Shown here in pieces: positions 13,495 to 35,021 of a stretch of 64,000 nucleotides of DNA (positions are counted from its first letter, which is position 1; every line of letters starts with the position of its first letter). Source of the stretch: Escherichia phage WPEC1; sequence record PV659873.1; one strand, 5' to 3'. The translations under genes and the position numbers were made by a program. Under the pieces are notes generated by a model. It ran no database searches and was not told where the DNA came from. It saw only the letters and a list, made by a program, of their open reading frames with translations.

Positions 13495-13983
13495 TTATTT
13501 TTTAGACTTGCTTTTTGTGATTTTTGTTTCGATTGCATTTATCATGTGTGCCGTATCTATTAAGATATGATTAGAATAGTTGCCTTTATCTTGTCGTATC
13601 TTAATTGTCACAGGAGATAAAGGACGATAACGTTGCATTGCAATCGCTTGAGCTATTCCTTCTCTAGAGGCTCTCGCTATAGGCTCAAAAACAGCTAACC
13701 CGACATTATTCAGTAAGTAATTTGCAAACACCTGCTTCATCTTTTTAGCGATATTGTTCTGTGAGATAACAGCACCATCTGTTATAAAAGGGCGAGCAGG
13801 TATGTTATTTGTTTCATTACCATATTGTTGAATAGCTGCTATTGCAGGAATAGTGAGATCTGATTCAGGATGCCTTTTGTTTGTTAAAAAACCAGCTTCG
13901 ATTTGAACTTGTTCAAGGTCCATCATCTTTTTGATAATGGTTTCCCAATCTGTATCGTCACCTGGTAAGATCTCACTTTCCAT
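13495..13983 (-). CDS. virion morphogenesis protein (head-tail joining, by position)
   Basis: 162 aa; last gene of head block; ATG overlaps upstream stop. Confidence 0.4.
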   Translation of the reverse strand: MESEILPGDDTDWETIIKKMMDLEQVQIEAGFLTNKRHPESDLTIPAIAAIQQYGNETNNIPARPFITDGAVISQNNIAKKMKQVFANYLLNNVGLAVFEPIARASREGIAQAIAMQRYRPLSPVTIKIRQDKGNYSNHILIDTAHMINAIETKITKSKSKK

Positions 13984-14531
13984 TATTTGTCCCTACGATA
14001 AAAAGAAACAGGTCCGTAATTTCGCAAATAATTAACGTTGCGTGTATTACGATCAACACTTGCAACATTACCAAGACCATTTACAGAGTTAGGATCGCTG
14101 TTTACTCGATCAATCTCACGAGCATCCACACCGCCAATAAGAACTTTGCTGGTTGCTCCTCGTCCTGCCGTGCACCCAGGGATCACCATAAGACCATTTA
14201 AATAGTTATGATAGATATCTTCCCACGGAGATTTATAAGTGACTTGACCGTTGTTAAATTTAACTTCAACTTCGACTTCACCCATCTTTTCTCTGCGGGA
14301 CATAGCTCCTCCTGTTTGAGTACTGTTGTTAAGAACATCGTTGTTCCATAAATACTCTAAAACAGAAATCAAGCTGTTCCACAATACTGCACACTTATCC
14401 TTATCTTCATTCCCTATGATATCAATCCAAGTTTGGATGATCTGAATCAGCATTGCATCTGGCAATACTTCTTGAGAAGGGTTATAAACAAGAATTCGGA
14501 TCAGTGGTGCCAACTCTACCGCATTCAGCAT
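13983..14531 (-). CDS. virion morphogenesis protein (by position)
   Basis: 182 aa; AAGGTGG SD. Confidence 0.4.
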   Translation of the reverse strand: MLNAVELAPLIRILVYNPSQEVLPDAMLIQIIQTWIDIIGNEDKDKCAVLWNSLISVLEYLWNNDVLNNSTQTGGAMSRREKMGEVEVEVKFNNGQVTYKSPWEDIYHNYLNGLMVIPGCTAGRGATSKVLIGGVDAREIDRVNSDPNSVNGLGNVASVDRNTRNVNYLRNYGPVSFYRRDK

Positions 14532-14540
14532 AAGCCCACC

Positions 14541-14885
14541 TTATTTTTTACGAAGGGAACGTTTTTTAGCTGGAGTGTCTACCGCTTCTACTTTTAAAAC
14601 TTCTTCTTTGATTTTTACAGGTGCATAGTCTTCGTAACTTACAAGATAGTAACCCATGTGTTCTTCACTTGCAAAAGGATGCACAAGAATACCTGTTTCT
14701 TCTCTCAAACGCGTGAGGAAGTGAATGAAGTTTCCACCTAATGCAATACGACCATCTTTCAGATAGAAAGACATTGGTGGCGCAGATACTAATGTTTTAT
14801 CAGCATCAATCAGTGGTGAAAGCGATTCGAAATCACGAATCATTTCGTGATAACTAAAGTAACGTTTCAATTCTGGGTTTGACAT
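14541..14885 (-). CDS. hypothetical head-associated protein
   Basis: ATG at 14885 with GAGGAG SD; ORF-track start 14939 would overlap the terminator hairpin. Confidence 0.4.
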   Translation of the reverse strand: MSNPELKRYFSYHEMIRDFESLSPLIDADKTLVSAPPMSFYLKDGRIALGGNFIHFLTRLREETGILVHPFASEEHMGYYLVSYEDYAPVKIKEEVLKVEAVDTPAKKRSLRKK

Positions 14886-14939
14886 ATCAATCTCCTCATT
14901 GTAAACTCTTATTGTAAACAGAAAAGGCTCGCCCATCAC

Positions 14940-14969
14940 GGACGAGCCTCTAATATTAACAGAGTTCTA
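14940..14969 (-). terminator. stem-loop downstream of major capsid gene
   Basis: aggctcg...cgagcct hairpin between capsid stop (14970) and next start. Confidence 0.35.
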
Positions 14970-32267: not shown

Positions 32268-32747
32268 TTATTGAATTGTCAGAGCAGAGATTGAGTTAAG
32301 GGTGCTCAAACCTACACCAACTTCATTACGCAGAAGGCTTGCATCTTTAAGACCAATAACCCATTGGTTCTCTGTAATCATTTCGCCAATAGTATCTTCA
32401 GGCTGACTTTGAATCCATCCAATCGTGCTAATGTAATAGCCACGTGGGTCTTCTAAATAAACACTGAACGCTACTTGACGAGTAGAATACATTGTTTGTG
32501 CATATGTTGCAAGTACTTCGTTAGCTGGAGATGTGCGTTGCAAAGACATTGTGAGTGTTCCCAAACGGTTACGACTCAAAGCTAGTGAAACGTCGCCATC
32601 AGTCCCTGCATAAGGGTTGATAATATCGTTAGATTTAGCAATAACGATTTTAGTATCAGCCGCAAAACCCCACGGTTCCCAACCACCTAATGAAAGGATA
32701 ACTTGAGATGGGTCGTAGGCCATTACGCCAGTAAGCATTTTATCCAT
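32268..32747 (-). CDS. tail tube-like protein (tentative)
   Basis: 159 aa directly downstream of sheath-like gene with GC-rich hairpin (32766-32784) between them. Confidence 0.4.
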   Translation of the reverse strand: MDKMLTGVMAYDPSQVILSLGGWEPWGFAADTKIVIAKSNDIINPYAGTDGDVSLALSRNRLGTLTMSLQRTSPANEVLATYAQTMYSTRQVAFSVYLEDPRGYYISTIGWIQSQPEDTIGEMITENQWVIGLKDASLLRNEVGVGLSTLNSISALTIQ

Positions 32748-32793
32748 TATAGATCCTCTTTATTTTGATAACGGGGGCTTAACCCCCGCCGTA

Positions 32794-34167
32794 TTAGTTT
32801 GCAGTACGGTTAGTCAGGACGTTGACCTGAACTTTAACGTAATGGAAGAAGCCAGCGTAAACATATTCAATCTTCATCCCATCTACCAGACGAGCATTGA
32901 TTTGCGCATCGGTCATATCGGCACGAGAAGGAATATAAACAATAGGTTTCAGATCGACACGCAAACCAGTCTCTTCAGAAGTAACAACTTCATTAGCGAT
33001 GGAACCGTTGAGGATACCTACTTGGATCGGGTTAGCCAGAACAGCTTGTCGAATCAAAGCCAGACCGTTTGAAGTAGCACGAACACCACCACCCAGCATA
33101 GACTGTTGTTTAAACAGTGTAAACAGTGATTCTTCTGTGCGAGCTTTAAACCACAAAGCATGAACAACATAGTCAACAAAGAAACCGCTAACCATCAATC
33201 CATCACGATAGAACAGAGTTCCATGCTCTTTACGATAGATGTTGCCGTTCTGTTGAACAATATTGTTTTCCGAAGTCTGATCCAGTTTCTCGATCTCTAC
33301 ACCTACCAGTGTTTTACCGTGAAGAGTAGTTAAACCAGGTTGACGAGAACAGATTGCACCAACAACTGCTGCTTCTGGGAATACAGAATCTGCATCGGTC
33401 ATCCACAAAGCAAAGCAAGTGTTATTATAACCGAGGTCATTCAGTCGTTCCAGAACGTTATCTTCTGCTTTCGTTTTAATTCCAGGTTCAGAGCTAGAGA
33501 AGAAGTAAACTTTATCATTCTCTTCTACCCATGCAGCCAAAGCTAGAACATCTTCTGTTTCATGGGAATCTGAAAGGGTCCAGAACCAGCTACTATCGAT
33601 ATCATGCAGAGCAGCAATATCTTCCGTAATAGCATTAGCATAGACAGTTTCTTGAGTGAAACCTGTGCTGTCAATAGAACCAAACTTACCTTCTACTGGA
33701 GTGAAAGTCATTGCAGCGCCGTTGTTAGCTACTGTAAACAGTGGGCCATAAACAAGATCTGCATTGATCATTTCAGTCAGACCAACTACAATCTCTTGTG
33801 CAGTTGCAGTGTCATCAGCAATGAATTTAAATTCTTTTTTCTTGGTACCATTTTTGATGGTAATTGTGTAAGTTGCACTATCTTCTACGATTGGAGTTAG
33901 AGTAAAGTTTGTAACTTCACGCTTACCAACCATGACTTGATCTGGTGGGAACAAACCGTTAAACAGTTTGACTGCCATAATATACGCTGGATCATTTAAT
34001 CCATAACCTGCTTCCAAAAGTGCATCGGAAGAAGAGTAATATTGAATCGCTTCGCCAGTTACGTTCTGACCTGTAAGGATCAGGGGAATATCGAACTGGG
34101 TTTCACGAATTGATGTAGCACCATACAGTAAAGTTACGGTTGCTACCTTTTCACGAAAAGTTGCCAT
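32794..34167 (-). CDS. tail sheath-like protein (tentative)
   Basis: 457 aa structural-type protein followed by tube-sized gene; assignment by size and order only. Confidence 0.4.
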   Translation of the reverse strand: MATFREKVATVTLLYGATSIRETQFDIPLILTGQNVTGEAIQYYSSSDALLEAGYGLNDPAYIMAVKLFNGLFPPDQVMVGKREVTNFTLTPIVEDSATYTITIKNGTKKKEFKFIADDTATAQEIVVGLTEMINADLVYGPLFTVANNGAAMTFTPVEGKFGSIDSTGFTQETVYANAITEDIAALHDIDSSWFWTLSDSHETEDVLALAAWVEENDKVYFFSSSEPGIKTKAEDNVLERLNDLGYNNTCFALWMTDADSVFPEAAVVGAICSRQPGLTTLHGKTLVGVEIEKLDQTSENNIVQQNGNIYRKEHGTLFYRDGLMVSGFFVDYVVHALWFKARTEESLFTLFKQQSMLGGGVRATSNGLALIRQAVLANPIQVGILNGSIANEVVTSEETGLRVDLKPIVYIPSRADMTDAQINARLVDGMKIEYVYAGFFHYVKVQVNVLTNRTAN

Positions 34168-34201
34168 TTATGCTCCTGTTAGAAACTTAATTCCAATGAG
34201 T

Positions 34202-34861
34202 TTATTCGGTAGGGTTGTTAAATAATGATCCATTTTGATTGACTGACGAGTATTCGCCTGGAACCAAAGTAATTGCATAAACCCTGTTTAGAATTAAATC
34301 TAAAGGGATAGGATCATTGTAACTATCTCTGAATGAACGGATGTGCATGTTGATTGCTTCTATTGGTGTAGTAGCAATATCTTCAATACTCATACGAGTG
34401 TTGAACGTCATAACCATACGCGCTCTTAATTCAGTCTTATCTCCGTCTACAATTGTATTGGCTTGAGCTATATTGGAGGCTCCTAAAAAACCAAGACCTT
34501 TAGAATAGAGATGTTTGTATTTTAATTCCTCTGCACCACGGAGAGCAGCCAGAACATAGCTCATCAAAGTGGTAGGTCTTCCACGATAGGCTACAAGTTC
34601 AATCTCGTAGGTATTATCCATCTCGTAGGAATACATATCATTTTGAATAGAGCTTCGGTAAGACCAACCTCCAGAATCGCTGGAAGTGATAATACGTAGT
34701 GCTAGGTAAGGAGTATCCGGTTTAATGAATGGCTTATCCATAACATAGACTGGCAACCCCACTAATTCTTGAAGGAAGCCACCTATATTTAAGTAGATGG
34801 CATTTTCGTATGCTTCTATTTGTTGGTAAATATTAGCCAAAGTTTCCTCCTTCTGTTCCAT
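34202..34861 (-). CDS. hypothetical virion protein (neck/tail terminator region)
   Basis: 219 aa upstream of sheath-like gene. Confidence 0.4.
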   Translation of the reverse strand: MEQKEETLANIYQQIEAYENAIYLNIGGFLQELVGLPVYVMDKPFIKPDTPYLALRIITSSDSGGWSYRSSIQNDMYSYEMDNTYEIELVAYRGRPTTLMSYVLAALRGAEELKYKHLYSKGLGFLGASNIAQANTIVDGDKTELRARMVMTFNTRMSIEDIATTPIEAINMHIRSFRDSYNDPIPLDLILNRVYAITLVPGEYSSVNQNGSLFNNPTE

Positions 34862-35021
34862 AAGACCAGGAGTTGTTTTGATCGTCTAATATTGCAACAC
34901 AGTGATGATGGACTAAGAAAGATGTTCTGGTCCAATCTTTAAGGGAATAAACAGAATACCATTTACCATCTATCAATATCTGATCTGATAACTGTTCTGT
35001 TCCTTGTTGTAACCCCTTCAT
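34833..35021 (-). CDS. hypothetical small protein
   Basis: 62 aa ORF overlapping downstream gene start. Confidence 0.3.
   Translation of the reverse strand: MKGLQQGTEQLSDQILIDGKWYSVYSLKDWTRTSFLVHHHCVAILDDQNNSWSYGTEGGNFG

Follow-up and report, generated by a model that had tools for sequence, protein, structure and literature searches.

The window analysed here is a 64,000-nt stretch of the record of Escherichia phage WPEC1 (PV659873.1). Its head and packaging genes and its sheath and tube genes lie in two separate blocks (Table 1). Both blocks are on the minus strand with a gap of 8.8 kb between them, as in the preliminary description of this DNA. The gap is made up of two small plus-strand blocks and three repeat islands. 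An island is present at every block junction, as had also been described, with the others at the outer ends of the head and tail blocks. By PHROGs profiles the head block encodes neck, major head, decoration and portal proteins, the large terminase, spanins and small ORFs. The tail block encodes a truncated gp136, the tail assembly chaperone, the tube-like protein, the sheath, a 219-aa protein and the C-terminus of a minor head protein. The sheath and tube assignments had been named beforehand as the point at which the description could fail, and both were upheld by PHROGs profiles. One plus-strand block contains tRNA genes for Gln, Pro, Ile and a Met-like tRNA together with a gene of 98 aa. 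The other contains small genes and a P-loop ATPase gene without its last 10 or so codons.

Table 1. Blocks, genes, cut gene ends and repeat islands in the region; reference positions are those of phage Mt1B1_P17.
Feature	Position	Strand	Basis or content
Island 2	13025-13326	none	two pieces of ~150 nt
Head/packaging block	13327-22758	-	reference 84189-93620, 99.8% over 9432 nt
Minor head protein, N-terminal 41 codons	13327-13449	-	cut from remainder of gene
Neck1	13495-13983	-	PHROGs profile
Major head protein	14970-15971	-	PHROGs profile
Portal	18102-19667	-	PHROGs profile
Large terminase	19769-21844	-	PHROGs profile
Island 3	22759-24609	none	about 15 pieces, roughly 77-79 or 150-155 nt
153-nt bridge between blocks 1-9570 and 24610-25597	24457-24609	+	reference 94690 to 94538, 100% identical
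tRNA cluster B block	24610-25597	+	reference 94614 to 93627, 100% over 988 nt
Island 4	25598-27445	none	about 24 pieces, mostly 75-84 nt
155-nt piece with intact tail-head junction	26451-26605	+	tail-block end, TAGT, head-block start
ATPase block (2.4 kb)	27446-29827	+	reference 18434 to 16053, inverted
Island 5	29828-31600	none	about 13 pieces, roughly 110-157 nt
Tail block	31601-35122	-	reference 80663-84184, 100% over 3522 nt
Tail assembly chaperone	31740-32222	-	PHROGs profile
Tube-like virion structural protein	32268-32747	-	PHROGs profile
Tail sheath	32794-34167	-	PHROGs profile
Minor head protein, C-terminal 96 codons	34833-35122	-	at end of tail block
Island 6	35123-35432	none	two 155-nt pieces (77 + 1 + 77), reverse orientation

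The window was identified as Phapecoctavirus, an Escherichia coli myovirus of about 150 kb, and was 99-100% identical to many complete genomes, including over the head and tail blocks. The complete genome of Escherichia phage Mt1B1_P17 (NC_052662.1) was used as the reference. Every block in the window mapped to one single stretch of this genome at 96.6-100% identity. The blocks that are apart in the window are neighbours in the reference. The tail block end (84184) adjoins the head block start (84189), the head block end (93620) adjoins the start of the tRNA block (93627) and the tRNA block end (94614) adjoins the start of window block 1-9570 (94616). The tRNA block is inverted relative to the head block, its normal neighbour, and the ATPase block comes from the far side of the genome. 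A 369-aa plus-strand ORF (28724-29833) was considered as the DNA ligase of the reference and rejected, as it mapped to the truncated P-loop ATPase (reference 16017-17156).

Three genes are truncated as the window is written: gp141 (the minor head protein), gp136 and the ATPase gene. When the tail block end, TAGT and the head block start were joined, a 138-aa ORF identical to RefSeq gp141 was restored. The absence of tape-measure and baseplate genes after the tube and chaperone genes, as first reported, extends to the whole window, in which none were found. Block mapping gave no counterpart within the window for reference positions ~39,116-80,533. These genes are absent because the tail block stops before the tape-measure gene is reached, with 21 nt and part of a single small gene missing in between. 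The remaining tail genes, on the tape-measure and baseplate side, are elsewhere in the same record. The preliminary description had also linked the lack of a small terminase gene to the disrupted order. No such gene is annotated beside the large subunit, so the absence itself stands, but the intact reference is likewise without one and the link to the break does not hold. It is a feature of the lineage, normal for the annotation of this phage group. The ORFs upstream of the large terminase are spanins by PHROGs and by the reference annotation. Among them a 114-aa ORF (21854-22198), tried as a small terminase candidate, was an Rz-like spanin by PHROGs.

The gene order of the window was not shared by related complete genomes in the synteny comparison that had been proposed. 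In these the order is uninterrupted, running from baseplate through tape measure, chaperone, tube, sheath, neck, capsid, portal and terminase to the tRNAs. This contiguous order is annotated in Mt1B1_P17 and in phage WPEC4, and 65 records had it in one place, among them relatives with no more than 74-81% identity. The restored tail-head junction was intact in 111 of 127 records. None of the database records compared matched the junctions of the window as written. An exact search of IMG/VR with a 40-nt junction and an exact look-up of the chimeric ATPase product also gave no match. As written, the window does not have a contiguous structural module, and it has one once its blocks are reordered as the bridging pieces in the islands indicate. 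It is the assembly, not the phage, that breaks contiguity.

The islands consist of pieces of ~77-79 nt or 150-157 nt, each of which is unbroken canonical sequence over a breakpoint. In most of the longer pieces a single base, at the exact center, departs from the reference. In island 2 the piece at 13025-13176 is the intact canonical junction between the head block end and the tRNA block (reference 93549-93700). The last 70 nt of the head block are found again at 13027-13096, and the end of block 24610-25597 is found in reverse complement at 13103-13172. The pieces of island 3 come from around reference breakpoints 3691, 18434, 123646, 150259, 107506, 39104, 116797 and 94615. Its bridging piece overlaps the following block by 77 nt, and a spurious second tRNA-Gln is called as a result. 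Several pieces of island 4 are in tandem with a 77-nt period, and its tail-head piece has zero differences from the reference over 84110-84262. Island 5 contains copies spanning the junctions at reference 104686, 80662, 94615, 18434, 93623 and 107506, with a partial third tRNA-Gln at 30543-30610. Its piece at 31142-31291 bridges the head block end to the tRNA block. Both pieces of island 6 are the tail-head junction, each with one central T>G (reference 84185 and 84188).

A search for exact repeats at a 30-nt minimum gave 177 pairs in the window, which measure 40-82 nt with a mode of 77. The majority (145) were 74-78 nt and none exceeded 82 nt. As a control, a complete 151-kb relative contained three exact repeats of at least 30 nt, none of them near 77. 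Each block has its outermost 77 or 70 nt copied exactly within short pieces. Pieces of 155 nt correspond to 77 + 1 + 77, or 2k+1 for k = 77, and the short ones to about k+1. In pieces of ~155 nt the differences from the reference lie at piece positions 76-80 and are mostly A>C or T>G. The lengths deviate in places, with many pieces of 74-79 or 150-157 nt and a few of 89-143 nt, so that these off-size pieces must reflect a degree of trimming or greater tangling of the graph. The short pieces overlap block ends by k and join the blocks in the true genome order. Twelve of the roughly 60 boundaries are between graph neighbors, and these are tandem 77-nt duplications in which the overlap was left untrimmed. 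The order of the pieces is neither sorted by size nor a clean walk through a graph. A k of 77 is a standard largest value for 150-nt reads in SPAdes.

Three related records, WPEC4 (PV682947.1), WPEC2 (PV691511.1) and WPEC6 (PV763039.1), are from hospital wastewater in Thailand with host EC3.18. WPEC4 was the only one of the three read directly. A literature search on the three phages and EC3.18 gave no relevant paper. All three matched the compared stretches of the window at 100%, including the restored tail-head junction, which is intact in each of them. Island queries matched at 16-29 separate places per record, and each record is 4-9 kb longer than normal relatives. The junctions and islands of the window as written were in none of the three. 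The head block is 100% identical to WPEC4 139884-149314 and the ATPase block to WPEC4 27848-30229. The head and tail blocks, split in the window, are directly adjacent in WPEC4 and 100% identical. Other window blocks are present there with identical ends but in a different order. WPEC4 has the same repeat-length signature, with 366 exact repeats and a mode of 77 in positions 1-50000. Its stretch 39251-45580 is an island of ~150-nt pieces from the breakpoints of the window, annotated as dozens of tiny hypothetical proteins. The arrangement was thus absent from independent assemblies of the same or near-identical genomes.

The region is almost certainly an assembly artefact and the phage itself an ordinary Phapecoctavirus with the canonical contiguous order, judging from sequence structure and comparison. 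What was directly observed is how the blocks map, the size signature, the persistence of the canonical junctions and the failure of the arrangement to recur. Mis-joining of contigs, one of two explanations offered in the preliminary description, fits the unshared gene order, the junctions unique to the window and the k = 77 signature of the islands. A de Bruijn graph with k = 77 would have been built from short reads and would have branched at single-base variant sites, many of which resemble recurrent sequencing errors. Branching would have split the genome into long edges, seen as the blocks, and many minimal edges of about 78 nt, or of 155 nt (77 + 1 + 77) around one variant. All edges would then have been strung into one "complete genome" in a largely arbitrary order and orientation with the 77-nt overlaps untrimmed, and the islands would be clusters of short graph edges. 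Large over-coverage can cause assembly errors, and spurious short contigs need to be filtered out (PMC8785237). Which software was used, and whether the graph branched through over-deep coverage or errors as opposed to a mixed lysate, is inferred.

A mixed lysate as the main source of the branching, with at least two very similar Phapecoctavirus variants differing at single bases, would still make the region an artefact and is possible but rather unlikely. The near-identical WPEC2, WPEC4 and WPEC6 share a source and host, and branch sites recur in WPEC4 (reference 116797, 150259, 39104, 93621-6, 123646 and about 6797). Transitions (C>T, A>G, T>C) account for part of the central differences, and several variants occur together in some pieces. 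Against this, the sites specific to the window mostly have A>C or T>G at the center, a typical direction of Illumina miscalls. At the tail-head site there are two single-base variants 3 nt apart, each on the reference background, and a piece with the reference allele is also present. Occurring separately and alongside the reference allele, they look like independent errors and not haplotypes.

The other explanation first offered was a genuine block-scale rearrangement, with the islands as recombination scars or as substrates for repeat-mediated inversion or translocation. Blocks that are inverted and translocated with repeats at every junction do, taken alone, resemble such an event. This reading was not borne out and is very improbable, since the islands are short graph edges that carry intact ancestral junctions, and genes are cut. 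The repeats were not pre-existing, as the normal genome has only three of at least 30 nt, and they have the same 77-nt length irrespective of sequence. The cuts fall inside the minor head protein gene, gp136 and the ATPase gene, and the tape-measure and baseplate genes would be parted from the sheath and tube genes. Sibling phages with 100% identical blocks retain the canonical head-tail junction. There is likewise scant likelihood that the scrambled order and the 77- and 155-nt modules are physically present in packaged DNA as a shuffled variant or sub-population; a milder form would be hypervariable single-base sites in a mixed population. The least credible reading, which was rejected, is that the modules were split by inserted small elements, either mobile or repetitive (MITE-like, or promoter/terminator cassettes). 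There are many copies of ~77-nt units, some in tandem, one terminator-like and another resembling a promoter with a start codon. The units are, however, at least 13 unrelated sequences, each copied from a unique, single-copy site in the normal genome, and many lie within coding sequence. They are alike only in length and in lying across block ends, the intact genome has none of them in repeated form, and they showed neither terminal inverted repeats nor target duplications.

As an assembly artefact the region has no biological significance, and its value lies in curation. Scrambled gene order is present in public "complete genome" records, namely the window and at least WPEC4, and WPEC2 and WPEC6 show the same signs. 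Side effects in the window are duplicated tRNA calls, truncated genes and spurious small ORFs, and in WPEC4 dozens of tiny "hypothetical protein" calls across its island. Analyses of synteny, pangenomes, tRNA counts and repeats or mobile elements can be misled by records of this kind, and protein databases can be contaminated by them. A simple screen of other records for the fault could look for exact repeats that do not exceed a k-mer length, for pieces k+1 and 2k+1 nt long with a variant at the center and for pieces bridging blocks in canonical order.

Besides the WPEC records, the region resembles two known systems. Its 77-nt exact overlaps and minimal edges of ~k+1 are also features of bubble and tip edges in a de Bruijn graph at k = 77. 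Edges around a single variant are likewise 2k+1 = 155 nt long, the variant being at position 78, and duplicates occur in both orientations. Such edges are usually popped, filtered or left as separate tiny contigs, whereas those of the window were concatenated with the long edges. Canonical Phapecoctavirus genomes (for example Mt1B1_P17 NC_052662.1, phAPEC8 and ESCO5; Stephanstirmvirinae) match the window block by block at 96.6-100%. Neck, major head protein, portal, large terminase, spanins, sheath, tube, chaperone and the tRNA set are common to both. The canonical genomes have a contiguous structural module, a single cluster of 11 tRNAs and no 77-nt repeats. The window contains the same DNA, but cut, shuffled and padded with duplicate pieces.

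Window positions 13000-36000 were compared with phage records by megablast. Many complete genomes of Escherichia phages in the genus Phapecoctavirus (Stephanstirmvirinae, ~150 kb) matched at 99-99.8% identity, and in no phage record did a single place account for more than 64% of the query. The window was then mapped by local BLAST against the entire genome of one such phage, Mt1B1_P17 (NC_052662.1; the reference). PHROGs profiles bore out the gene calls of the preliminary description, and the arrangement it reported, with head and tail genes split by plus-strand genes and repeat islands, is present in the window sequence (PHROGs, ARAGORN). 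This split is not a real biological feature. The window consists of k = 77 assembly-graph edges joined end to end without ordering; apart from this, the phage is an ordinary Phapecoctavirus.

Blocks (long window segments), genes and breakpoint sites in the window and in Mt1B1_P17
Feature	Window	Orientation or strand	Reference	Basis
Block	1-9570	inverted	104182 to 94616	local BLAST
Block	10204-13024	forward	104686-107506	local BLAST
Head block	13327-22758	forward	84189-93620	local BLAST
tRNA-B block (tRNA cluster B, 98-aa gene)	24610-25597	inverted	94614 to 93627	local BLAST
Block with P-loop ATPase at end	27446-29827	inverted	18434 to 16053	local BLAST
Tail block	31601-35122	forward	80663-84184	local BLAST, 100% identical
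Block	35433-48823	forward	~25785-39104	local BLAST
Neck1	13495-13983	minus		PHROGs profile
Major head protein	14970-15971	minus		PHROGs profile
Portal	18102-19667	minus		PHROGs profile
Large terminase	19769-21844	minus		PHROGs profile
Tail assembly chaperone	31740-32222	minus		PHROGs profile
Tube-like virion structural protein	32268-32747	minus		PHROGs profile
Tail sheath	32794-34167	minus		PHROGs profile
tRNA cluster A	8052-9484			ARAGORN
tRNA cluster B	24544-25015			ARAGORN
Lone tRNA-Gln	30543-30610	minus		ARAGORN
Breakpoint sites			84185/84188, 93621-6, 94615, 80662, 104686, 107506, 18434	
Further breakpoint sites			39104, 150259, 116797, 123646, 3691, ~6797	

The annotated genes of Mt1B1_P17 run uninterrupted on one strand in the order baseplate, tape measure, small hypothetical protein, chaperone, tube, sheath, hypothetical protein, minor head protein, Neck1, major head protein, portal, large terminase, spanin, small genes and a single cluster of 11 tRNAs. 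The block ends abut in this genome: tail-block end (84184) with head-block start (84189), head-block end (93620) with tRNA-B block start (93627), and tRNA-B block end (94614) with the start of block 1-9570 (94616). The window therefore represents the normal genome after cutting at a few positions, with its pieces reordered and some of them inverted, and the intervening genes read as plus-strand genes only because the blocks that carry them sit upside down. At 49283-50619 identity to Mt1B1_P17 was only 75-89%, or there was no match, compared to 98-100% elsewhere; this stretch appears to be truly variable sequence close to the end of the reference genome and not an island.

The tape-measure and baseplate genes are absent, as the preliminary description noted, because the tail block ends within gp136, just before the tape-measure gene. 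No part of reference ~39,116-80,533 was found in the window by local BLAST. The small terminase is also absent as described, but the break is not the cause, as the intact reference has none annotated there either. Both ORFs upstream of the large terminase are spanins. They form an overlapping minus-strand pair immediately upstream of it (21854-22198 and 22089-22481), with no small terminase candidate nearby. The 114-aa ORF matches PHROG 'Rz-like spanin' and is left unannotated in RefSeq Mt1B1_P17, where the label is placed on the overlapping 130-aa ORF instead; the two may be a spanin pair.

Some original junctions are retained in the islands, the strings of short pieces at block junctions. 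Piece 26451-26605 contains the tail-block end, TAGT and the head-block start, and matches the reference without any difference across 84110-84262. In pieces 13025-13176 and 31142-31291, the end of the head block is joined with block 24610-25597 in reverse complement, and piece 24457-24609 links block 24610-25597 with block 1-9570. The order in the sequenced DNA was thus 1-9570, 24610-25597, reverse complement of 13327-22758 and reverse complement of 31601-35122. Continuing with gp136 and the tape-measure gene, this order is canonical, and the window contradicts its own gene order. Together, tail end, TAGT and head start give an ORF of 138 aa that is identical to RefSeq gp141 'minor head protein'. 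The window as written leaves this gene in fragments of 41 codons (13327-13449) and 96 codons (34833-35122) separated by 21 kb, ends gp136 after residue 30 and lacks the last ~10 residues of the ATPase. In the intact genome the single 11-tRNA cluster has one tRNA-Gln; a cut between tRNA-Gln and tRNA-Gly has divided this cluster into clusters A and B of the window. The 'duplicate' tRNA-Gln in cluster B (24544-24616, 24621-24696) and the lone tRNA-Gln are artefacts, called because pieces 24457-24609 and 30549-30704 carry 77-nt overlap copies of reference 94538-94614.

In a de Bruijn graph of k = 77, edges overlap by k, the shortest edges measure k+1, and an edge carrying a single variant measures 2k+1 with that variant at its centre. 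The repeats and pieces of the window are the fingerprint of such a graph. The islands are consecutive pieces that measure ~77-79 or 150-157 nt, apart from a few of 89-143 nt, and every piece is a copy of reference sequence centred on a block breakpoint. Pieces 35123-35277 and 35278-35432 are each exactly 155 nt (77 + 1 + 77) with a single central T>G change; one end of the former repeats exactly the final 77 nt of the tail block, and one end of the latter exactly the initial 77 nt of the head block. Most of the 26 long pieces differ from the reference at piece positions 76-80, mostly by A>C or T>G. The window contains 177 maximal exact repeats, which measure 40-82 nt and peak sharply at 77 nt. 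As a control, only three exact repeats reach 30 nt in the complete 151-kb reference, two of 32 and 34 nt and a terminal one of 328 nt. Positions 1-50000 of the sibling GenBank record WPEC4 (PV682947.1) have 366, again with mode 77. Tandem 77-nt duplications at 12 piece boundaries are graph neighbours joined without overlap trimming. The pieces follow neither a size ranking nor a clean path through the graph. Similar islands occupy the remaining block junctions at 9571-10203 and 48824-49282 (pieces from reference 93555-93697, 39028-39188, 150183-150338, 116724-116873 and 107429-107525), and the whole 64-kb window is affected.

Mt1B1_P17 1-12500 carries ~35 very small minus-strand genes with regular gaps of ~80-90 nt. 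Despite this layout, the genome is almost without exact repeats of at least 30 nt, and the gaps may hold degenerate promoter or terminator cassettes. The 328-nt exact direct repeat has copies at both ends of NC_052662.1 (two match places of WPEC4 1-328) and could be terminal redundancy or assembly overlap.

Beyond what was observed directly (mapping, k = 77 signature, retained junctions, truncated genes, non-reproducibility), short reads would have given a graph branching at single-base variants, and every edge, long and short, would have been concatenated into one record. The abundance of A>C and T>G among the central changes suggests sequencing errors that recurred, possibly at very high depth. 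Some branch sites may stem from a genuine mixture of near-identical phages in the lysate, as several recur in WPEC4 and part of the central changes are transitions.

The 15.5-kb reference stretch from tape-measure end to tRNAs lies in one place in 65 records, among them relatives of only 74-81% identity (phiWec181, Citrobacter phage Tr1, Klebsiella phages). Of 127 records that match the restored 1004-nt tail-head junction, 111 contain it intact, and it is 100% identical in Mt1B1_P17, ESCO37, ABPW7, WPEC4 and the further siblings WPEC2 (PV691511.1) and WPEC6 (PV763039.1). No record covers the window junctions as written (34723-35632, 12725-13726). Of the two alternatives in the preliminary description, mis-joining of contigs is the correct one. 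Several records, including those named Campylobacter phage B15 and A110a and Acinetobacter phage vB_AbaM_ABPW7, share 77-99% identity with E. coli Phapecoctavirus or Justusliebigvirus genomes; the host labels of these records seem doubtful and may be due to contamination or mislabelling.

The main value of the analysis is as a warning on the WPEC database records. A literature search found no paper on the WPEC phages. WPEC4, WPEC2 and WPEC6 are 155-159 kb, compared to 148-152 kb in relatives, and probably need re-assembly. WPEC4 is public as a 'complete genome', yet its positions 33000-45600 contain k = 77 islands, with ~40 pieces of ~150 nt called as dozens of 30-100-aa hypothetical proteins. 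In WPEC4, from hospital wastewater in Thailand, the tail block (136358-139882) is directly beside the head block (139884-149314), both 100% identical to those of the window. More window blocks occur there with unchanged ends in a different order, together with its own 6-kb island (39251-45580) of ~150-nt pieces annotated as dozens of tiny hypothetical proteins. The other alternative, block-scale rearrangement with islands as junction scars, is incorrect. Arbitrary concatenation predicts sibling records that share blocks but differ in block order, which a heritable rearrangement would not produce.
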